Shown piece by piece: positions 2,098-27,845 of a stretch of 27,845 bases of DNA. Origin of the DNA: a virus (Duplodnaviria; Heunggongvirae; Uroviricota; Caudoviricetes). The stretch spans positions 1-27,845 of the IMG/VR virus record IMGVR_UViG_2802429221_000019; one strand, given 5' to 3'. The notes below the pieces were generated by a model that worked only from the letters and a program-made list of their open reading frames with translations, had not been told where the DNA came from and ran no database searches. Position 1 is the stretch's first letter, and each line of letters starts with the position of its first letter. Made by a program: the position numbers and the translations under genes.

Positions 2098-3207
2098 TCA
2101 CTCTGTTTCCGCTATCCATTCCGGGATTTTTGCCTCAAGCTCAAGCTGCGTGGTAAAGCCGCTGTTATCAATGGTGTGCTCGGCTTTTGCAATAATCCAG
2201 TCCTGATTATCAATCTCGCTTTTAAATCCTGTTACCGTGCCATGCATTTCGGGGTAGAGTTCTGCTCGTCCACGTGCCAGCGTGATGGAGAATGATGCGG
2301 CTCCGCGTTGTAGTTGTTGCCACTTTGCCGCCGCTGCGCGTCTTGCTGCCTGCTCGTTCTGATAAGTCTTGCGTAACACAAACACATTGCCTTCCGCGCC
2401 TTCCATATAATCACCTTCACGGCTGCTGCTTTTCTCTTTTTTCGGTTTTGGCGGTTTGCGGCGTTTCACGCTGACTTTTTTCTTTTTCCCGTAATTAAGA
2501 TCAAGCCAGTAAGCGCGTACCCCCGTATACGCCTCGCGGTCAGCAATGCGGAACTGATGGCGATCGCCGCTGCTGCGGGTGATGGAGAACGATGGCAACG
2601 GCTGGCCCTGTGCGTTCACGCCACCGCCGGGCATGATGAATAACAGATTACCGCTTTTTACCGTGGTGATTGCGCCCAGCATTTCCGCCATGCGCGTAAG
2701 GAAGGACATGTCGCTTTCTTCAGTCTGGTCGGCGTGGTCGATTTCGATATCCATCAGCATTTCGCTGATTTGCGGTTTCAGACCGTACCGATGAGCGATG
2801 GCGGATACCACGCGCTCAACGGTCACATCATGCCAGGACACTTCACGTTTAACGTTAAATTCATCCCGAAAATCTGCGCTTCTGGCTGAAACAGTCAGCC
2901 TGTCCGGCGGTCCTTCGTGTGCGATTTCATCAACAATGTAAGACCCTTTTTCTGTCAGCGGTTCGCCTTTCCAGCCAATGAGAACCGTCAGGCACGCGCC
3001 CCGTGGTGGAAGCTGCAACTGACCATCCGCATCATCCAGCGTAATGGTGAGCTGGTCTGCCTCAAATCCCCGGTTGTCGGTCAGCGACAGGCTCATCAGG
3101 CGCTCTGCCACGCCGGACAGCGTTTTACCCTCCGCGAGAATATCAAAATCCGGCATTTTCACGGGGTCTGTGCTCTGACTGAGCAATTGCATGGTGGTAT
3201 CGGTCAT
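2098..3207 (-). CDS. D: tail protein D (late control D family)
   Basis: ORF-track frame 2098..3339; start chosen at ATG 3207 (MTDTTMQLL...) with SD GGGAGGGAG upstream. P2 gpD-like in size and sequence; contains a Lys-rich insertion KKKKVSVKRRKPPKPKKEK. Confidence 0.85.
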   Translation of the reverse strand: MTDTTMQLLSQSTDPVKMPDFDILAEGKTLSGVAERLMSLSLTDNRGFEADQLTITLDDADGQLQLPPRGACLTVLIGWKGEPLTEKGSYIVDEIAHEGPPDRLTVSARSADFRDEFNVKREVSWHDVTVERVVSAIAHRYGLKPQISEMLMDIEIDHADQTEESDMSFLTRMAEMLGAITTVKSGNLLFIMPGGGVNAQGQPLPSFSITRSSGDRHQFRIADREAYTGVRAYWLDLNYGKKKKVSVKRRKPPKPKKEKSSSREGDYMEGAEGNVFVLRKTYQNEQAARRAAAAKWQQLQRGAASFSITLARGRAELYPEMHGTVTGFKSEIDNQDWIIAKAEHTIDNSGFTTQLELEAKIPEWIAETE

Positions 3208-3364
3208 CTGCTCCCTCCCTGTGCGGCATGGTCGCATGTGTGTGCGGGCGGGGTTACTGCTTTTTGTTGTCGCCGGGCGGCAAGAACGGCGCAGGGGTGA
3301 GATTACGCGCGTGGTGGGTGATGATTGTTGCCGAATCATTTAACGGATACAAGGGGCTGAAGCT

Positions 3365-4549
3365 ATGAGTGAAACTCGTTTTCATGGTGCCCGTGTTACG
3401 GAAAATACCGACCTGGTAACAGCGATTAACGATGTTGATTCCAGCGTTATCGGTATCGTGGCAACGGCGGATGATGCGGACGCGAAGCTGTTCCCGCTGA
3501 ACAAGCCCACACTGCTGACCCGCGTCAATGACGTGCTGGGAAAATGCGGAACAACGGGGACGCTTTATCGTGTGCTTAAGGCCATCGCAGACCAGGTGAG
3601 CACAAAGGTGATCGTCGTTCGCGTGGCTGAACACAAAGAAGAAGACGGAAAGACGCAGGATCAACTGGTTATCGGTGGTTCTGAGGATGACGGCAGCTAT
3701 ACGGGGATGTATGCGCTGCTTGTTGCAGAGCAGGATGAAAGCATCGGATACCGTCCGCGTATTCTGGCCGCGCCGGAGCTGGACACGGAGGCGGTGACAA
3801 AATCCCTGTGCGTGATTGCGGGTAAACTGCGCGCGTTTGTGTATGCCTCATGTCACGGCTGTAACACGATGGCTGAAGCGATTACCTACCGCCAGAAATT
3901 CAACGAACGTGAAGTGATGCTCTTGTGGCCGGACTTCATCGCCTACAACACGAAAAGTGGCGAAAACGAAACGTTCCCCGCGCCTGCCTATGCGTGCGGC
4001 CTTCGTGCGTACATTGACCATGAGCAGGGCTGGCACAAATCGCTGTCCAACGTTCCGGTTAAAAATGTGCTGGGGATGTCCAGGCATGTGTTCTGGTCGT
4101 TACAGGCCGAAGACAGCGATGCCAACAGCCTCAACAACAAAGAAATCACGACCATTATTCGTCGCAACGGGTTCCGCTTCTGGGGCAACCGCACACCGGA
4201 AACGAACGCCTACATCTTTGAGGTGTATACCCGAACCGCACAGGTGCTGGCTGATTCAATTGCGGAAGCGCAGTTTGAAACCATCGACAGTCCACTGACG
4301 CCTGCGAACGTGAAGGATGTTATCAGTGCCATCAGGGCAAAACTGGATTCACTGGTTACTGCCGGGAAACTGATTGGCGCGGAGTGCTGGTATGACGTGG
4401 TGGATAACAGCACCACGGATTTACGTCAGGGGCGTGTGCGTATTCGCTACAAATATACGCCCGTTCCGCCACTGGAAGACATGGAGCTTTACCAGACGTT
4501 TACTGATGAATACTTTGAACCCGCATTTGCGGTGTTGGGAGGTGCCTGA
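3365..4549 (+). CDS. FI: contractile tail sheath protein
   Basis: 394 aa; conserved segments FPLNKP, GFRFWGNRT, YTPVPPLE as in P2 gpFI; SD AAGGGG upstream. Confidence 0.9.
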   Translation: MSETRFHGARVTENTDLVTAINDVDSSVIGIVATADDADAKLFPLNKPTLLTRVNDVLGKCGTTGTLYRVLKAIADQVSTKVIVVRVAEHKEEDGKTQDQLVIGGSEDDGSYTGMYALLVAEQDESIGYRPRILAAPELDTEAVTKSLCVIAGKLRAFVYASCHGCNTMAEAITYRQKFNEREVMLLWPDFIAYNTKSGENETFPAPAYACGLRAYIDHEQGWHKSLSNVPVKNVLGMSRHVFWSLQAEDSDANSLNNKEITTIIRRNGFRFWGNRTPETNAYIFEVYTRTAQVLADSIAEAQFETIDSPLTPANVKDVISAIRAKLDSLVTAGKLIGAECWYDVVDNSTTDLRQGRVRIRYKYTPVPPLEDMELYQTFTDEYFEPAFAVLGGA

Positions 4550-20616: not shown

Positions 20617-22368
20617 ATGATTCAGGACGCTTTTGTGCGCCAGCGTGCGCGACAACTTTACTGGCAGGGTTATCCGCCCGCTGAAATATCACGTCTGATG
20701 GGAATAAACCCGAACACGATTTATGCGTGGAAAAAACGCGACCAGTGGGATGAAACGCCACCCGTGCAGCGTGTCACGCAGTCCATCGATGCGCGCCTCA
20801 TCCAGCTTACTGAAAAACAGAATAAAACAGGCGGTGACTTTAAGGAAATAGACCTGCTGACCCGGCAGCTTAAAAAACTGCATGATGGCCAGCCGGATGC
20901 GACGGCCACAGGAAAGAAAGGCCGGGCGAAAAAGCTTAAAAATCATTTCACGCCGGAACAGATTGCCGCACTGCGGGAAAAAATCATCAGCAGGCTGGAG
21001 TGGCATCAGCGGGGCTGGTTTGACTCCCTGACCCTTTGCAGGGAAGCCGGGATACGTAACAGGATGATCCTGAAATCCCGACAGATTGGGGCGACCTGGT
21101 ATTTTGCACAGGAAGCACTGCTGATGGCGCTGCGTGACGATGTGGCGCAACCTTACCAGCGTAACCAGATTTTTTTGTCTGCGTCGCGTCGTCAGGCGTT
21201 CCAGTTTAAAAGCATTATTCAGAAGGCTGCATCTGAAGTTGATGTGGAGCTGAAAGGGGGCGATAAAATCATCCTCTCCAACGGCGCAGAACTGCATTTT
21301 CTCGGTACTTCTGCTGCGACGGCACAGTCCTACACAGGCAATTTTTATTTTGATGAATTTTTCTGGGTCAGTCGCTTTGCTGAACTGCGCAAGGTGGCTG
21401 GCGCTATGGCAACCCTCAGCGGGCTGCGACGCACCTACTTCTCCACGCCATCAACCGAAACGCACGAGGCATACGTCTACTGGAACGGCGACCGCTGGAA
21501 CGAGAAAAAGGCCGCGCATAAACGCCAGCGTTTTTCTGTGGACTGGAAAACGCTGCATAACGGGCTTATCTGCCCCGACCGGACGTGGCGGCAAATTGTC
21601 ACGCTGGAAGATGTGGTTAATCACGGCTGGAAACACACCGATATTGATGAAATTCGTGATGAAAACACCGAAGACGAGTTCCGCAATCTCTATATGTGTG
21701 AGTTTGTCCGCGAAGGGGAATCGGCATTTAACCTGAATATCCTGATTGGCTGCGGCGTTGACGGATACGACGACTGGAAAGACTGGAAACCTTTTGCTCC
21801 CCGCCCGATGGGGAATCGTCCGGTATGGATTGGGTATGACGCAAACGGCAGCAGTGGAAACGGCGACAGTGGCGCGGTGTCCGTGGTGGTTCCTCCGGCT
21901 GTTCCTGGTGGCCGTTTTCGAACGGTGGAGACGCGACGCGTTCAGGGGCTGGAGTTTGAAGAACAGGCCAGAGTCATTGAAGAGTTCACGTGTCGCTACA
22001 ACGTGGAACACATCGGCATTGATGTGACGGGCGGGAACGGGGAGGCTGTTTATCAGATAGTGAAACGGTTTTTCCCTGCCGCTATTCCGTACACCTTCAC
22101 GCTGTCATCAAAACGGTCGCTGGTACTGAAAATGCTGCAAATAATGCGTGCCGGGCGGTGGGAATACGATCGCGCCGAACGCGAGCTGGTCGCGGCCTTT
22201 AACGCCGTGCGTAAGGTGAAAACACCGGGCGGCTTTATCACTTACGAAACGGACCGCGCGAGGGGGATCAGCCACGGCGACCTTGCGTGGGCAACCATGC
22301 TTGCTGTCATTAACGAACCAATTGGCGGCGAAGGAGAAAACGAGCGTTTCACGGTTATGGAGTTCTGA
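20617..22368 (+). CDS. P: terminase large (ATPase) subunit
   Basis: 583 aa; SD GGGGGAG upstream; divergent from O as in P2. Confidence 0.9.
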   Translation: MIQDAFVRQRARQLYWQGYPPAEISRLMGINPNTIYAWKKRDQWDETPPVQRVTQSIDARLIQLTEKQNKTGGDFKEIDLLTRQLKKLHDGQPDATATGKKGRAKKLKNHFTPEQIAALREKIISRLEWHQRGWFDSLTLCREAGIRNRMILKSRQIGATWYFAQEALLMALRDDVAQPYQRNQIFLSASRRQAFQFKSIIQKAASEVDVELKGGDKIILSNGAELHFLGTSAATAQSYTGNFYFDEFFWVSRFAELRKVAGAMATLSGLRRTYFSTPSTETHEAYVYWNGDRWNEKKAAHKRQRFSVDWKTLHNGLICPDRTWRQIVTLEDVVNHGWKHTDIDEIRDENTEDEFRNLYMCEFVREGESAFNLNILIGCGVDGYDDWKDWKPFAPRPMGNRPVWIGYDANGSSGNGDSGAVSVVVPPAVPGGRFRTVETRRVQGLEFEEQARVIEEFTCRYNVEHIGIDVTGGNGEAVYQIVKRFFPAAIPYTFTLSSKRSLVLKMLQIMRAGRWEYDRAERELVAAFNAVRKVKTPGGFITYETDRARGISHGDLAWATMLAVINEPIGGEGENERFTVMEF

Positions 22369-23414
22369 TGAGCAGAAAAAATAAAAAAGTGCGCATGAGT
22401 TCACGCATTGATCTCGCTGATGCGCTCAGGAAAGAATCGTCGCTCAGTGCATTCACATTTGATGGTCCTTACCGCCTGACCGGGCATGACCTGCTGGACA
22501 ATATGTACTGTGCTGATAACGGGCGATGGTATGAAACCCCGGTGGACTGGTACGGTCTGGCAAGAGCTGCCCGGCAAACGTCCTGGCATCAGTCTGCGCT
22601 TTACTTTAAGCGTAATGTATTGCTCGGCTGCTATATTCCGCATCCGCTGCTTTCCCGGCAGGATTTCTCGGCGCTGGCGCTGGACTGGTTTGTGTTCGGT
22701 AACGCATTCCTTGAGCTTCGAAGCAATATGCTCGGCGAACCGCTTAAATTACGGCACGCCCTGGCGAAATACATGCGACGCGGAAGCGATCTTGAATCAT
22801 GGTGGTATGTGCAGGATGGCAAGGACGCGTTTCAGTTTCGCCCTGGCAAAGTGTGCCACCTGATGAACCCGGATATTAACCAGGAAATCTACGGCATGCC
22901 GGAATATCTTGGCGCATTACTCTCGGCCAGCCTGTCTCATTCGGCGGACATGTTCAGAAAACTGTACTACGACAATGGATCCCACGCCGGGTGCATCATC
23001 TACATCGGTGCAGCGCAGGTAAACCGCGAAAGCATGGACTCCCTGAAGGAAACGCTACAGGGTGCGCGTGGTGGTGGTGCATTTAAAAACGTGCTCATTC
23101 ACGCGCCAAACGGGGGCAAAGAAGGTGTGCAAATTTTGCCGTTCCAGCAGATCACCGCAAAGGATGAGTTCATGAATGTTAAGGCGGCATCCCGTGATGA
23201 TGTGCTGGCTGCGCACCGCGTTCCGCCGCAACTGATGGGGGCGATGCCGGGCGAAAAAAGTGCGTTTGGTGATGTGGAGAAGGCAGCGCGGGTTTACGCA
23301 ATTAACGAGCTGATGCCCGTCATGGAGGCCATGAAGCACATCAATGACTGGCTTGGCGAAGAGGTGATCCGTTTTAATTCTTATGCTCTTCTTGATGAAA
23401 AAACAGCCCCGTGA
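22368..23414 (+). CDS. Q: portal protein
   Basis: 348 aa; ATG overlaps P stop (TGATG); P2 gpQ-like size and position. Confidence 0.9.
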   Translation: MSRKNKKVRMSSRIDLADALRKESSLSAFTFDGPYRLTGHDLLDNMYCADNGRWYETPVDWYGLARAARQTSWHQSALYFKRNVLLGCYIPHPLLSRQDFSALALDWFVFGNAFLELRSNMLGEPLKLRHALAKYMRRGSDLESWWYVQDGKDAFQFRPGKVCHLMNPDINQEIYGMPEYLGALLSASLSHSADMFRKLYYDNGSHAGCIIYIGAAQVNRESMDSLKETLQGARGGGAFKNVLIHAPNGGKEGVQILPFQQITAKDEFMNVKAASRDDVLAAHRVPPQLMGAMPGEKSAFGDVEKAARVYAINELMPVMEAMKHINDWLGEEVIRFNSYALLDEKTAP

Positions 23415-23430
23415 TGGGGCTGTCCTTTTT
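23403..23430. terminator. bidirectional intrinsic terminator between Q and the convergent 174-aa gene
   Basis: stem ACAGCCCC / GGGGCTGT with 5-nt loop, overlapping the Q stop, followed by CCTTTTT; the complementary strand has a T-run on the other side. Confidence 0.65.
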
Positions 23431-23953
23431 ACCAGAGTTGAACCATTTTCTGTGTGCCGTCAGGCTTGAGATTATCAATTTCAGAGAGAACGTAATATTG
23501 AATGGCTTCACAGACGGTGGTGTATGGTGAATTACCTTCTTTAAGTGGCACGATATTATTATTAACGCGAACCTGTATTTCATCGTTATACATTGCGATC
23601 GAAAGAGGAGTATGCACGAAGGCGACTTCGCCAGGTGTGTCGTCAACCACTGTCTCAATGCTGAAAATCAGTTTTCGCTCATCATTGCCGCCCCTTGCTT
23701 TGGGGGTAGCGGCAGGAATCTGAGATAAAGGCATTCTGCGAAACCCTTCAGCCGTTTCCAGTCCGCATGAAACGTAATGCTGGCGATTACCGTCGCTATC
23801 AGTCCATGTCTGTGATGGCAGCTCCAGAGAGATTTCATAAGCATCAACAATTCCCTGGGCAATGCGTACAAGCGGGGTCAGGTCTTCATTGCGGCGAAAA
23901 CTCTCCTTTACCTGATCTCGTTTTTCTCGTAACTGCTTGTAATTAATGACCAT
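23429..23953 (-). CDS. hypothetical protein, 174 aa, no recognised domain
   Basis: ORF-track frame 23429..23992; start chosen at ATG 23953 (MVINYKQLREKR...) with SD GGAGG 7 nt upstream; ends at the bidirectional terminator; GC content looks lower than the phage core. Confidence 0.5.
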   Translation of the reverse strand: MVINYKQLREKRDQVKESFRRNEDLTPLVRIAQGIVDAYEISLELPSQTWTDSDGNRQHYVSCGLETAEGFRRMPLSQIPAATPKARGGNDERKLIFSIETVVDDTPGEVAFVHTPLSIAMYNDEIQVRVNNNIVPLKEGNSPYTTVCEAIQYYVLSEIDNLKPDGTQKMVQLW

Positions 23954-24358
23954 AAGACAGCCTCCATTGATTTCTTTGCTCGTATTTTGCACTTATGAAG
24001 TGTGGTCGGCAAGGTGCCGCATCACTGACGCGCTTCGCTTGTCTGCTGCTTCGCCGGGGCATAAAAAATTTATGCCCCGACTCTCCAGCTCCCGTATCAA
24101 TCAGATAATTTCACGACGTCTTCCAACTTATCGCCATCATCGACGGCCAGACTCTTACGCAATCCCATCGAGCTGATAGCATGTTCTCGCCGCCTCAGTG
24201 CGATTTTGACGGCCTTACCTTTCACCCCATCAAATCAGAACCCCTTACGTATTTTTCACGCTCAGCGTGAGCGATACAGCCATTCTGTTGTGTCGCTGCG
24301 ACATCGTTCAGGGAATGCTATTTACCCCCTGAAACGCGGGCTGTTCCCCCGTCACCTG

Positions 24359-24382
24359 CGCGCAGAAAAAGCGCGTTTTTTT
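24359..24382 (+). terminator. terminator-like hairpin with U-tract (plus-strand sense) in noncoding region
   Basis: CGCGC - AGAAAAA - GCGCG followed by T7. Confidence 0.35.
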
Positions 24383-24450
24383 GTGCACGCACGGATCCTT
24401 GACGGATCCAGCCGCCATGCGGGCCGGAAGGGCAAAAAGTCGTTCAAAAA

Positions 24451-24480
24451 AATTGTGCAAATTTGTGCACTATTGTGCAA
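24451..24480. repeat. three tandem 10-bp repeats (ATTGTGCAAA / TTTGTGCACT / ATTGTGCAAA)
   Basis: TTGTGCA core at 24453, 24463 and 24473, exactly one helical turn apart, at the boundary of the AT-rich island. Confidence 0.6.
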
Positions 24481-24718
24481 ACCGAACGGAGTGCTTATTT
24501 ATAGAAAAATTGAGCCTATGTATACGACGTTGCTTATAAATACATCCCTGACTGTTATGTGAAAATATGCAAAGAAAATTACATGCTATGGAGATGAGAG
24601 TTATAACGACCTTTTCTACTTATTTGTAAAAGAGGTCGTTATGTAAAAGTTAAATTATTTTTTACTCTTGATATGTGTAAAAAATATAGCTTTGATGTTT
24701 ATATCCTATTAGAATACA

Positions 24719-26416
24719 TTATTTATCCTCTTTAATGATTTTGTTATAGTCAAAATCCCAAATTTTTCTGTCAATGCCGTTTGTTGGTGTAACCCGGTAG
24801 AATAAGGATCGTAATCCATTGTAAAAATACTGGAGAGATTTCTGATTTTCTGGTTTGTCTAACCAGTTTCTTGTAATCATTCTAAAGAATTCAATATGCT
24901 GATTGAATATTTTCTTATTTAATTTTCTTCTTAAACCGGATGTAGACTCATGGTTGTCTTTTCTTTTCTGAATTTCAGTTTCAATTGATTGTAATTGAGG
25001 ACGTATCTTGAGTAAGTATAACTCTTTCGAAAAACCATTGTTAATTATATCCTGATTTTCCCAGAAGGAAGAGTCGTCGGTATTATAAAGGTGCTCACAA
25101 TGCTCAAATATCAATTGTTCTGGAGCTTTTTCACCCGGCAGTGATATAATTCCTCTCTGATCCTCAGGGCTGTGATCTCCATCAAGAATACAAATTGATT
25201 TTAACGAGGTTTCCTTAAGATGAGAATCATTAAAAATAGTTTTTAAATTGTCTGCACCAATGAAACAATCAATTAAGTGAAATGAATTACTAACTATAGC
25301 AAAATTTGGATATTTGCTTATCCAATAACCAAGTATTTCATTAAATAAAAAGCGAGCTTCTTCATCTTCCGTGAAAACTGGTATCTTGTTCCTTGTGTAT
25401 ATCTCATCCTTTGTTTGTGTTTTCAGATACATTGTTATTTTTAATATATCAGGATTATCCAAAAGCAGAGCCTTTGTAATATTGTTAATTAGATAGGCAA
25501 CATGATATTTTTTATGAAAAGCATATTCTAGCAATGTCAGACTGTGCGTTGTGAAAAATACTTGAATCTTATAATCTTTTGCGTATTGATAAATTTTATC
25601 TAATAATCTTATCTGTAAAGAAGGATGTAAAGTGGCATCAAATTCATCTATTAACAGAATGCTTTCTTTTTGATCAGTGGATTGAATAAGTGATTCAAAA
25701 TAATACCTAAGGCTAACTAATGCCTTGATTATAACGAATATATTGTCTTCCCCGGATGATATGGTATTAGAATCAATTGCTGGGTTATCGGTATCAAATA
25801 ATGGGCCAGCTTTAAAATCTCCGATATTGTTTGATTCTATATTTATAATATTAATGCCCAAAAGTTCATTATATATTTTCGATATATAACCAACATACTC
25901 TTCTGGTAGGTTTAACGGAATTTTTGTAAGGGCGTCGTCTTTAGTTTCACCAATTGGGAATAGTCGCGATAATCCAAGATATAAAACTGGTTTAGCTGGA
26001 AGTGATTGTTTTTCTTTTCCGCGTGGGTATACTGGTTTGATAGCATACCGTTGCGCTTCGTCTGGATTTTTTGAGTTGTGCTTTCTGAAGTCTAGTGTGC
26101 TATGATCCAAATAGTTAATAGAAAATAACACACCTTTTGTTCCCTCTGCCGGATCGGTGTAATTTTTTGATTCCCTAACAATTGCTTCCATTTTGGGGTT
26201 GGCTATTTTGTTTATAGATTTTATAACTCTAACACAATTACTATTTGAATAATTTTGTGATCGAGATGGTGGCATTTGGAAACCATTGCTAATTAAATGA
26301 AGCAATGTTGTCTTACATGTCCCATTGGTTCCTGATATTATATTGATGTCTTCATTGAATGAGAAGTCAATATCTATCAGTTTCTTAAATTTTTTAAAAC
26401 TAATTTCTTTAATCAT
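24719..26416 (-). CDS. OLD-family-like ABC ATPase with C-terminal Toprim-like nuclease domain
   Basis: 565 aa; Walker A GTNGTCKTT (aa 29-37), signature-like ISSGE (aa ~219-223), Walker B ILLIDE (aa 253-258), H-loop FFTTHS (aa ~287-292); C-terminal PVFTEDEE (Glu ~350) and ILDGDHS (DxD 412-414) fit a Toprim fold; SD AAGGA 8 nt upstream; very AT-rich. Confidence 0.7.
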   Translation of the reverse strand: MIKEISFKKFKKLIDIDFSFNEDINIISGTNGTCKTTLLHLISNGFQMPPSRSQNYSNSNCVRVIKSINKIANPKMEAIVRESKNYTDPAEGTKGVLFSINYLDHSTLDFRKHNSKNPDEAQRYAIKPVYPRGKEKQSLPAKPVLYLGLSRLFPIGETKDDALTKIPLNLPEEYVGYISKIYNELLGINIINIESNNIGDFKAGPLFDTDNPAIDSNTISSGEDNIFVIIKALVSLRYYFESLIQSTDQKESILLIDEFDATLHPSLQIRLLDKIYQYAKDYKIQVFFTTHSLTLLEYAFHKKYHVAYLINNITKALLLDNPDILKITMYLKTQTKDEIYTRNKIPVFTEDEEARFLFNEILGYWISKYPNFAIVSNSFHLIDCFIGADNLKTIFNDSHLKETSLKSICILDGDHSPEDQRGIISLPGEKAPEQLIFEHCEHLYNTDDSSFWENQDIINNGFSKELYLLKIRPQLQSIETEIQKRKDNHESTSGLRRKLNKKIFNQHIEFFRMITRNWLDKPENQKSLQYFYNGLRSLFYRVTPTNGIDRKIWDFDYNKIIKEDK

Positions 26417-26433
26417 CTATATCATCCTTAAAT

Positions 26434-27279
26434 TTAAATGTCAGGGATTTTTATACCATGATTATAAATGATAATTTCTAGACCTTTTTTCTTATCTTGT
26501 GCAGTATAATTAAGCGTATAATCAGTCATATTGAATTCATGATATATGCTTTTTATTTCAGGCACATTGTCATAAGACACAACCCAAGGTAGTTGAATTT
26601 CCCGTAGTGTATTAGCGATTTTTACATGATCATCATGTTTATAAAAATTTCTATATAACTCTGCTCCTTTAACATAATAAGGTGGATCAAGATATATTAG
26701 ACTATTTTGGGGTAGCAATGCTTTTTGGTGTAGCAGAAAATCTACAGCATCAAAATTCGATACGTAAATTTTCTCCTTATATGCCCCAATTAGTTCAATC
26801 CTTTTAATTAACTCTTTTTTGTTGAATCGTGCATCTAACTTCCATGGTCCTTTTTGTTCTTTCCCTCCAATAACGCCAGCCTTAAGTATTCCTGAACGGT
26901 TTGTTCTATTTAAAAAGAAAGTAGATAATGCGACTTCAAGCATACTATATTTATCATTGTTTAGGAGTATCTCCTTTTGAGTATGCCAATTTTCAATAGT
27001 CACAGGAACTTCATCAATCATTTCACATAACAGATCGTTATGATTAACCACTGCAAACCAAAAAGAATAAAGGGCAGGATCAATATCATTTATGAAGATA
27101 TTTTCAACAAGACCGTTAAGGAGCAAACCTAATGCAACACCGGCTCCACCTGCATAAGGTTCAGCATAACATCCACCAATGAGATCATTGTTGCGGAGTA
27201 TTTGTTCAATATGTGGCAAGAATTTTGCCTTACCTCCCGGATAACGAAGAGGGGTTCTAAAATGAGAAGGCTTTGTCAT
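26434..27279 (-). CDS. Dam-family (D12 class) N6-adenine DNA methyltransferase
   Basis: 281 aa; motifs YPGGK (aa 13-17), EPYAGGAGV (aa 40-48, SAM-binding FxGxG type), DPPY (aa 198-201); 17-nt gap to the downstream OLD-like gene. Confidence 0.85.
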   Translation of the reverse strand: MTKPSHFRTPLRYPGGKAKFLPHIEQILRNNDLIGGCYAEPYAGGAGVALGLLLNGLVENIFINDIDPALYSFWFAVVNHNDLLCEMIDEVPVTIENWHTQKEILLNNDKYSMLEVALSTFFLNRTNRSGILKAGVIGGKEQKGPWKLDARFNKKELIKRIELIGAYKEKIYVSNFDAVDFLLHQKALLPQNSLIYLDPPYYVKGAELYRNFYKHDDHVKIANTLREIQLPWVVSYDNVPEIKSIYHEFNMTDYTLNYTAQDKKKGLEIIIYNHGIKIPDI

Positions 27280-27464: not shown

Positions 27465-27845
27465 TCATCCCTCATGATGGAAAAGGCATATCCAACTTTG
27501 TAATTGTTTTTTCTCATCATCATTTTGATTACTAAAGTGCTGTTTGCCTCTCTTTTGGAGCAAAGTAGCCTTGCGGCGGGCGCGTTCAGTGGTTTCATTG
27601 ATTCTTTGTGCGTGCTCTGCGTCACGGATGGCGCGCAGCATGTCAGAAAGCACGGTAACGGGAGTTTTCATGGTGTTCTGGTCCTGCTGAATTGTGGATG
27701 CCAGGCGTGCGGCGGCTTCGGGGTCTGATGCCCCGAGCTGCTCCAGATAGCTGGAGACCGGGTTATGGCGGATCTCCGTGCTGCTTACGCCGTGATTACG
27801 GCTCAGGCGCTGCCAGAGCTGCGTGATTCGGCTGTCCGGGCGGGT
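27465..27845 (-). CDS. phage early-region protein, C-terminal part (5' end outside window)
   Basis: frame is open from the window edge (hand translation ...TRPDSRITQLWQRLSRNHGVSSTEIRH...) to the stop at 27465; function not recognised; last ~30 codons are AT-rich. Confidence 0.55.
   Translation of the reverse strand, partial: TRPDSRITQLWQRLSRNHGVSSTEIRHNPVSSYLEQLGASDPEAAARLASTIQQDQNTMKTPVTVLSDMLRAIRDAEHAQRINETTERARRKATLLQKRGKQHFSNQNDDEKKQLQSWICLFHHEG

Follow-up and report, generated by a model that had tools for sequence, protein, structure and literature searches.

An ABC ATPase with a Toprim-like C-terminal domain, encoded in the window (the whole stretch of DNA that was analyzed, 27,845 nucleotides), is obligately linked to a D12 DNA methylase of the PD-lambda-5_B type, across phyla and in both gene orders. 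Methylase and predicted nuclease are co-inherited as a unit, a trait of restriction-modification systems, and the pair is probably an uncharacterized restriction-like anti-phage cassette. We put at about even the chances that the 565-residue protein is the predicted nuclease half of a two-gene, restriction-like, methylation-gated defense cassette placed in a hotspot of P2-like prophages. The features of the locus, with the basis for each in brackets where one applies, are as follows.

22368..23414, plus strand: P2-type portal gene (gpQ homologue), a hotspot boundary (RefSeq, from the near-identical E. coli TW10598 prophage)
24719..26416, minus strand: ABC-ATPase and Toprim-like protein, 565 aa (ORF; Pfam; PADLOC)
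24722..25126, minus strand: C-terminal helical domain of that protein, aa 431-565
25127..25399, minus strand: Toprim-like core, aa 340-430, with strand 1 (345-349) followed by E350-D-x-E353-x-R355 and strand 3 (408-411) followed by D412-G-D414
25484..26416, minus strand: ABC ATPase head, aa 1-311, with Walker A K35, signature T218-ISSGEDN-225, Walker B D257/E258, D-loop DATLHP and H-loop H291
26027..26299, minus strand: aa 40-130, ABC lobe-I strands and Insert 1 (entropy, polarity and conservation ordinary; modeled secondary structure)
26434..27279, minus strand: D12 (alpha-class) N6-adenine DNA methyltransferase, 281 aa, the first cassette gene (Pfam, PADLOC, RefSeq)
27465..27845, minus strand: P2-type replication endonuclease gene (gpA homologue), 3' end, the other hotspot boundary, running off the window (RefSeq)

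The cassette lies in the gpA-portal slot of a P2-like prophage, a recognized defense hotspot that old and tin occupy in phage P2 (PMC9122126; PMC9519451). Across the two cargo genes the GC content falls from ~0.53 to 0.31. Complete E. coli genomes rarely carry the cassette (14 of 5426 cover at least 80% of the query), and for 13 of these 14 the match consists of two pieces that together span 86% of the query. AR_0013, the comparison genome that was inspected, has nothing but the methylase and ATPase genes in its hotspot, indicating that the pair is autonomous. A search for the P2 cos sequence with up to 3 mismatches allowed had no match in the window, and a scan for promoters and terminators scored the hotspot no differently from shuffled sequence. 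A 187-residue ORF (23429-23992) was considered as a third component and rejected, being absent from all 80 related loci described below and from the AR_0013 hotspot.

The methylase contains motif I (YAGGAG) and motif IV (LDPPYY), is labeled 'DNA adenine methylase' in RefSeq, and matches Pfam MethyltransfD12 (1.3e-20), PADLOC PD-Lambda-5_B (PDLC04018; 8.7e-122, full length) and MTase_II (9.1e-108). The ATPase gene follows the stop codon of the methylase gene at a distance of 17 bp, and the same ORF in the 98%-identical E. coli TW10598 prophage bears the RefSeq label 'AAA family ATPase'. Searching 5.8 billion proteins with the 565-residue sequence returned 1360 homologues (E<=0.001), among them full-length proteins of ~550-565 residues at 45% identity or above. 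The family alignment, reaching down to 45% identity, comprises 52 sequences.

When GTDB, represented by one genome per species, was scanned with this alignment, 80 loci at 36-71% identity were kept, spanning at least seven phyla (Bacillota, Pseudomonadota, Actinomycetota, Spirochaetota, Planctomycetota, Kiritimatiellia, Mycoplasmatota and others). A D12 methylase homologue (33-58% identical to that of the window) is present in 71 of the 80 and directly adjacent in 64, while in each of the nine loci without one the contig breaks off at the ATPase gene, so that all 71 loci with intact flanks are positive. Among these 71 the ATPase gene directly precedes the methylase gene on the same strand in 53 and directly follows it, as in the window, in 7; in 4 the two are adjacent and convergent with the ATPase gene first, and in the remaining 7 they are separated by 0.4-4 kb. 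In many loci the genes overlap or stand 4-50 bp apart. Pairwise distances of the ATPases correlate with those of the methylases (r = 0.65; Mantel test, 0 of 999 permutations), a mirror-tree relationship that can also arise from simple co-inheritance of neighbors. The association extends to remote ATPase relatives (24-32% identity), with an adjacent methylase in a second E. coli family (577 aa, 26% identity; neighboring methylase 52% identical), in Vibrio phage ValB1MD-2 (Peduoviridae) and in Streptococcus phage phiGBSVK-D. A frameshift disrupts the ATPase gene of two related loci, whose neighboring methylase gene is intact; one of the two lies in a metagenome-assembled genome and is hence possibly an assembly error, and the reverse case was seen in none. 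An earlier reading of the protein, made from its sequence only, overlooked this obligate methylase neighbor, which is the decisive context.

The same methylase type occurs in PD-lambda-5, an experimentally validated, broad-range, two-gene defense ('ParB/HEPN, methyltransferase') of E. coli prophages (Vassallo et al. 2022, PMC9519451). Its cloning required an mrr-deleted host (PMC9519451), indicating that its methylase is active in vivo. The window and PD-lambda-5 share the PD-Lambda-5_B methylase and the form of a compact two-gene prophage cargo; in contrast, the partner in the window is an ABC ATPase with a Toprim-like domain rather than ParB/HEPN, leaving the methylase as the only element common to both, and PADLOC run on the window would call an incomplete system only. 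No PD-Lambda-5_A gene was found in the window, either among the PADLOC matches listed for the three hotspot proteins or by tblastn with four ParB/HEPN homologues. Related loci are more varied. An iterated HMM places a PD-Lambda-5_A (ParB/HEPN) gene beside the ATPase-methylase pair in 21 of the 80, and in 4 of the loci where the pair is separated a PD-Lambda-5_A homologue (PADLOC 5e-30 to 2e-269) stands between its two genes. The closest relatives of the window outside E. coli have the order ParB, methylase, ATPase, and a lambdoid E. coli prophage carries a methylase (49% identical to that of the window) paired with ParB/Srx. No recognizable effector other than the ATPase and methylase is present in 50 of the 71 loci. 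One methylase is therefore the fixed element of a modular family, in which it is joined by the ABC-Toprim protein (these 50 loci and the window), by ParB/HEPN (PD-lambda-5 proper) or by both. The ParB/HEPN protein would be an optional second effector working on the same methylase, present in about a quarter of the related loci and absent from the window.

The sequence motifs of the 565-residue protein describe an intact ABC ATPase and a Toprim-like acidic site. K35, D257/E258, H291, E350 and D412/D414 (contexts GTNGTCKT, LLIDEFD, FFTTHS, PVFTEDEE and ILDGD) are invariant in the 52-sequence alignment, as are the signature T218-I-S-x-G-E-D-N225 and the D-loop D260-A-T-L-H-P265. The sequence-only reading had assigned the first seven of these residues to Walker A, Walker B, the H-loop and a Toprim site, and its positions are exact; its remark that the protein is close in size to P2 Old also holds (565 aa versus 586 aa). 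Pfam AAA_15/AAA_21 matches are confined to the N-terminal half. Profile-profile comparison identifies this half as homologous to the ATPase of the P2 Old family, with Walker A, signature, Walker B and H-loop all present; it is an OLD-type ABC ATPase homologue that keeps every nucleotide-binding motif.

Modeling suggests that the C-terminal half is plausibly a very divergent, family-specific Toprim-like domain with its acidic site intact. Modeled alone, residues 312-565 (pLDDT 89, pTM 0.83) run in the order strand 345-349, helix, strand 379-382, helices, strand 408-411, strand 423-425 and helical bundle. The invariant E350 (with D351, E353 and R355) ends the first strand of the model and the invariant D412-G-D414 ends the third. 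A glutamate after strand 1 together with a DxD after strand 3 is the canonical Toprim arrangement, reportedly described by Aravind et al. in 1998. In the model, the acidic residues of the Toprim C-terminus that had been proposed stand invariant at canonical positions, whereas Pfam (E<=1), hhalign and Foldseek lend the assignment no support. Pfam finds no match of any kind within residues 312-565 at E<=1, Toprim included, while OLD-like_TOPRIM (PF20469) gives P2 Old 1.2e-17, and Pfam DUF4435 has no match in the 565-residue protein. The C-terminal alignment compared with the P2 Old family by hhalign scores 0.75%, marking the two C-terminal profiles as unrelated. Foldseek returns nothing below E 0.2 for the C-terminal domain, with AriB among the top fold matches at weak scores. 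Among the matches listed, 120 for each protein, the relatives of P2 Old have PF20469 precomputed with the exception of a single truncated entry, while those of the 565-residue protein all lack it.

The C-terminal profile of the family retrieves only 343 relatives from 1.84 billion cluster representatives; in the full-length ones the domain starts at about residue 310 of a 550-610-residue ATPase fusion, and the rest are fragments. No transitive link to relatives with an annotated Toprim domain emerged, all 343 matches having the same architecture and none of the 10 distant relatives examined carrying a Pfam C-terminal domain. Solved structures, searched with the single sequence and with the family profile, gave the C-terminal half no match, and those that did match (PtuA, retron ATPases, AriA, Rad50 and Thermus OLD) do so over ATPase segments only. 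The best PADLOC matches, HEC-04 (residues 249-444, from Walker B onward; 1e-16) and ATPase-Toprim_I-B (residues 14-418; 7.7e-16), both run through the Toprim-like core. Conservation within the protein is lowest in the last 105 residues (461-565), where the mean column identity is 0.51.

In predicted function the protein resembles the OLD-family nucleases and HEC-04. OLD-type nucleases fall into classes that are solitary, followed by a downstream UvrD-like helicase, associated with a retron RT and ncRNA, or split as AriA/AriB (PMC12392090), and the members compared here are those of Class 1 (P2 Old, Thermus OLD, Vc OLD), Class 2 (GajA), Class 3 (retron Eco8) and Class 4 (PARIS AriA/AriB). The protein of the window shares with this family an N-terminal ABC ATPase, in its model a C-terminal Toprim-like glutamate and DxD, a length of ~570 residues and, with old itself, the P2 hotspot. 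The protein differs in having no OLD-like_TOPRIM or DUF4435 match, a C-terminal half that shows no profile similarity to P2 Old, and weak fold scores. Its family has a gene context that fits none of the four classes, the constant neighbor being the D12 methylase (71 of 71 loci), and the combination that PARIS requires, an AriA-type ATPase with a DUF4435 Toprim, separate or fused, was not found. HEC-04 is a single-gene ABC ATPase-Toprim defense protein embedded in Hma systems, in which the Walker A and E/D/D residues are essential for defense (bioRxiv 10.1101/2024.01.29.577857). It resembles the protein of the window as an ATPase-Toprim fusion in which 'Insert 1' extends an N-terminal hairpin into a sheet (bioRxiv 10.1101/2024.01.29.577857), but the profile match is partial and weak (residues 249-444) and the window holds an autonomous pair with its own D12 methylase.

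The likeness to Type II and Type III restriction-modification systems lies in the methylase and nuclease being inherited together in either order, in the MTase_II match, and in occasional decay that strikes the nuclease gene and not the methylase. The differences are that the nuclease lacks a classical restriction fold and has an ABC ATPase where Type I and Type III enzymes have a helicase-type motor. Classical restriction-enzyme folds are PD-(D/E)xK, HNH, GIY-YIG, PLD and half-pipe.

In the restriction-like mechanism that we favor, the methylase would mark resident DNA (host chromosome and prophage) with N6-methyladenine at its own recognition sites, while the ATPase-nuclease, probably an ATP-engaged dimer like other ABC/OLD enzymes, would bind incoming unmethylated DNA. 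A Toprim two-metal site (E350/E353, D412/D414) would then nick or cleave that DNA, with ATP binding and hydrolysis gating or licensing cleavage. The logic would be that of restriction-modification, with an ABC-Toprim nuclease in place of a classical restriction-enzyme fold. This reading rests on parsimony. Since 50 of the 71 loci have no other recognizable effector, the methylase has nothing else to protect against in most loci, and the nuclease is never found without it. For this family, sensitivity of cleavage to methylation is purely something that we infer, and no DNA sequence-recognition domain was identified in the 565-residue protein. Analogy also counts against the reading, in that the characterized P2 Old, Vc OLD, GajA and PARIS are triggered sensors or nickases and are not known as methylation readers, and OLD-ABC/Toprim modules beside modification systems have been read as back-up suicidal effectors (PMC12839542). 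It is somewhat short of an even bet that the family consists of true restriction endonucleases that read the m6A of their cognate alpha-class methylase, forming a widespread, modular methylase-hub defense family of which PD-lambda-5 would be just one face; if so, Toprim would join the short list of restriction-enzyme catalytic folds.

The alternative that survives best, which we nevertheless consider unlikely, is an abortive-infection guard. The ABC ATPase would sense a phage trigger, such as an anti-restriction or anti-methylase protein, a DNA mimic or the loss of methylase activity, and would then free the Toprim nuclease to attack nucleic acid of the host or the phage (DNA, or tRNA as for PARIS), so that the cell is killed or arrested. 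The methylase would serve as the guarded or partner protein, or have a separate modification function, and would not provide the self-marker for the nuclease. PARIS (AriA/AriB) and PrrC/RloC act in this way, and OLD-ABC/Toprim modules beside BREX-type systems have been interpreted as back-up suicidal effectors (PMC12839542; PMC9122126). Consistent with a guard, PD-lambda-5 has been termed a compact 'RM+Abi' system (Vassallo et al., PMC9519451), expressed HEC-04 is toxic (bioRxiv 10.1101/2024.01.29.577857), and AriB is one of the top fold matches of the C-terminal domain. Moreover, the second effector (ParB/HEPN) of 21 of the 80 loci means that the ATPase could be the 'Abi' layer there. However, the cassette consists of methylase and nuclease alone in the window as in 50 of the 71 loci, leaving no primary restriction to back up, and a nuclease without a methylase is never seen, even at 24-32% identity, whereas a stand-alone sensor-effector would not need one.

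A sub-variant of the restriction-like reading, to which we give still less credence than to the guard, is a Type III-like holoenzyme in which the nuclease would have no DNA specificity of its own and would work solely in complex with the methylase, whose target-recognition domain would find unmethylated sites while the ABC head, by hydrolyzing ATP, would drive communication or license cleavage. Tight gene coupling (17 bp in the window; overlap or 4-50 bp in many loci) and the correlated divergence of ATPase and methylase would suit such a complex, as would the lack of a recognizable DNA-reading domain in the nuclease and an invariant surface-loop motif (N73-P-K-x-E77) in Insert 1. Independent proteins fit better with a methylase family that also pairs with ParB/HEPN and with the convergent orientation of some pairs.

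Finally, a plain stand-alone Class 1 OLD nuclease, equivalent to P2 Old and lying next to an unrelated orphan prophage methylase, with residues 40-130 as a lineage-specific variable specificity insert, is essentially excluded: it would account for the slot shared with P2 old, the similar length, the homologous ATPase and the single polypeptide with its ATPase ahead of the Toprim-like domain, but the methylase neighbor is universal across phyla and gene orders, the Pfam OLD-like_TOPRIM domain that the 120 listed relatives of P2 Old carry, one truncated entry apart, is assigned to none of the 120 listed here, hhalign finds the C-terminal profiles unrelated, and residues 40-130 are conserved rather than variable.

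We found no description of a methylase paired with an ABC-Toprim protein in the P2-hotspot, PADLOC-HEC, BREX or PD-lambda-5 literature, and an earlier mention in comparative genomics is possible. None of the four current OLD-type classes involves a DNA methylase, and PD-lambda-5 has been validated yet is without a known mechanism; the locus links the two. One methylase family is a hub to which an ABC-Toprim nuclease or a ParB/HEPN protein, or the two together, are attached in temperate phages and in at least seven bacterial phyla. Should the nuclease prove to be methylation-gated, the pair would be a restriction-modification system built on a fold foreign to classical restriction enzymes, which current defense-finding tools would report only as incomplete. 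The pair also offers a simple two-gene E. coli model, in the old slot of P2, for the licensing of a Toprim nuclease by an ABC ATPase. The cassette is moderately interesting and experimentally tractable.

The feature that the sequence-only reading had singled out, a non-conserved, low-complexity and polar insertion at residues 40-130, is ordinary, and such an insertion is ruled out by entropy, polar fraction and conservation alike. The Shannon entropy of the segment is 4.07 bits (4.06 for the whole protein) with no 12-residue window below 2.2, and its polar fraction is 0.55 versus 0.52 for the rest, placing it at rank 134 of 474 sliding windows. Its mean column identity (0.62, with 18 invariant columns) equals that of the C-terminal catalytic region (0.62) and lies near that of the ATPase core (0.68). 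The invariant residues are S43, N44, N73, P74, K75, E77, P89, G95, Y102, F110, R111, H113, N114, S115, R123, K127, P128 and Y130. A variable insert that sets partner or target specificity, as had been proposed, does not agree with a segment that is conserved and of normal complexity. Nor is it the suggested coiled-coil or dimerization insertion, the segment containing no coiled coil and being largely canonical ABC fold. In the AlphaFold2 model of the full protein (mean pLDDT 81) it forms a helical hairpin (60-82) and strands 96-102, 107-112 and 126-129, which the model places as the antiparallel sheet of ABC lobe I together with 'Insert 1', a term for ABC ATPases from Payne et al. (bioRxiv 10.1101/2024.01.29.577857), and thus as a normal, conserved part of the ATPase. 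Residues 74-85 fall below a pLDDT of 50. The sole oddity of the segment is that the invariant N73-P-K-x-E77 motif sits in this low-confidence loop of Insert 1, through which contact with a partner or with DNA is possible.

The slot that houses the cassette also holds an additional ORF beside the portal gene and a long stretch that separates this ORF from the stop codon of the nuclease gene:

Window 23429-23992, minus strand: 187-aa ORF, with the portal gene on one side and the nuclease gene on the other
Window 23993-24718: intergenic stretch of about 725 bp, from the 187-aa ORF to the nuclease stop codon
Window 24358-24376, plus strand: GC-rich hairpin, then a run of T
Window about 24603-24642: 9-bp inverted repeat (ATAACGACC...GGTCGTTAT)

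The ORF, whose RefSeq version is a 175-aa "hypothetical protein", has no match in Pfam, NCBIfam or PADLOC. None of the 80 related loci contains it. Of the comparison genomes only E. coli AR_0013 was inspected for it, and it is missing there too; the remaining 12 E. coli genomes with the cassette show an equal 86% coverage, split into two segments. This ORF probably represents an independent small cargo gene that entered the same hotspot as the cassette. Across the adjoining intergenic stretch, which contains no convincing ORF, the GC content drops from roughly 0.49 to roughly 0.31. The P2 cos sequence has no match anywhere in the window at up to 3 mismatches, and the cos site of the prophage was therefore not located.

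The AR_0013 prophage is otherwise near-identical to the window and its methylase-nuclease cassette is intact, while its portal gene carries an internal stop; it is a defective prophage that still keeps its defence cargo:

AR_0013 locus 569-1615: portal gene, annotated as a pseudogene

The only solved structure with a sequence match to the window methylase (26434-27279, minus strand) is M.CbeI (7M6B, E 1.5e-17), rather than Dam or T4 Dam. M.CbeI is described as an alpha-class N4-cytosine methyltransferase, yet the window methylase keeps an adenine-type DPPY motif.

Beyond the hotspot, a second, distant pair occurs in E. coli, and several related loci depart from the two-gene layout:

E. coli KSC64, NZ_CP018840.1 465919-468631: ATPase/Toprim-like gene and methylase gene
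Desulfosporosinus sp. FKB locus 3011-3778, minus strand: second D12 methylase copy

The KSC64 pair, flanked by two integrase genes near yfdQ/yfdR, encodes a 577-aa ATPase/Toprim-like protein with 26% identity to the window protein and a methylase with 52% identity to its window counterpart. Of the 134 E. coli genomes with a match to the window methylase, about 100 owe it to a 101-bp stretch of this methylase gene that is 74% identical to the window methylase gene; in E. coli the KSC64 pair seems far commoner than the P2-borne version.

In Rhizobium sp. 2MFCol3.1 and Pseudorhizobium pelagicum the methylase, only 33% identical to that of the window, is found 4 kb upstream of the ATPase gene. The interval is occupied by two large genes, one encoding about 710 aa and the other about 500-530 aa, and the arrangement may represent an enlarged version of the system with four genes. 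The second Desulfosporosinus methylase has the opposite orientation to the ATPase gene and is located about 2.2 kb upstream of it, and another D12 copy sits directly downstream of the ATPase gene.
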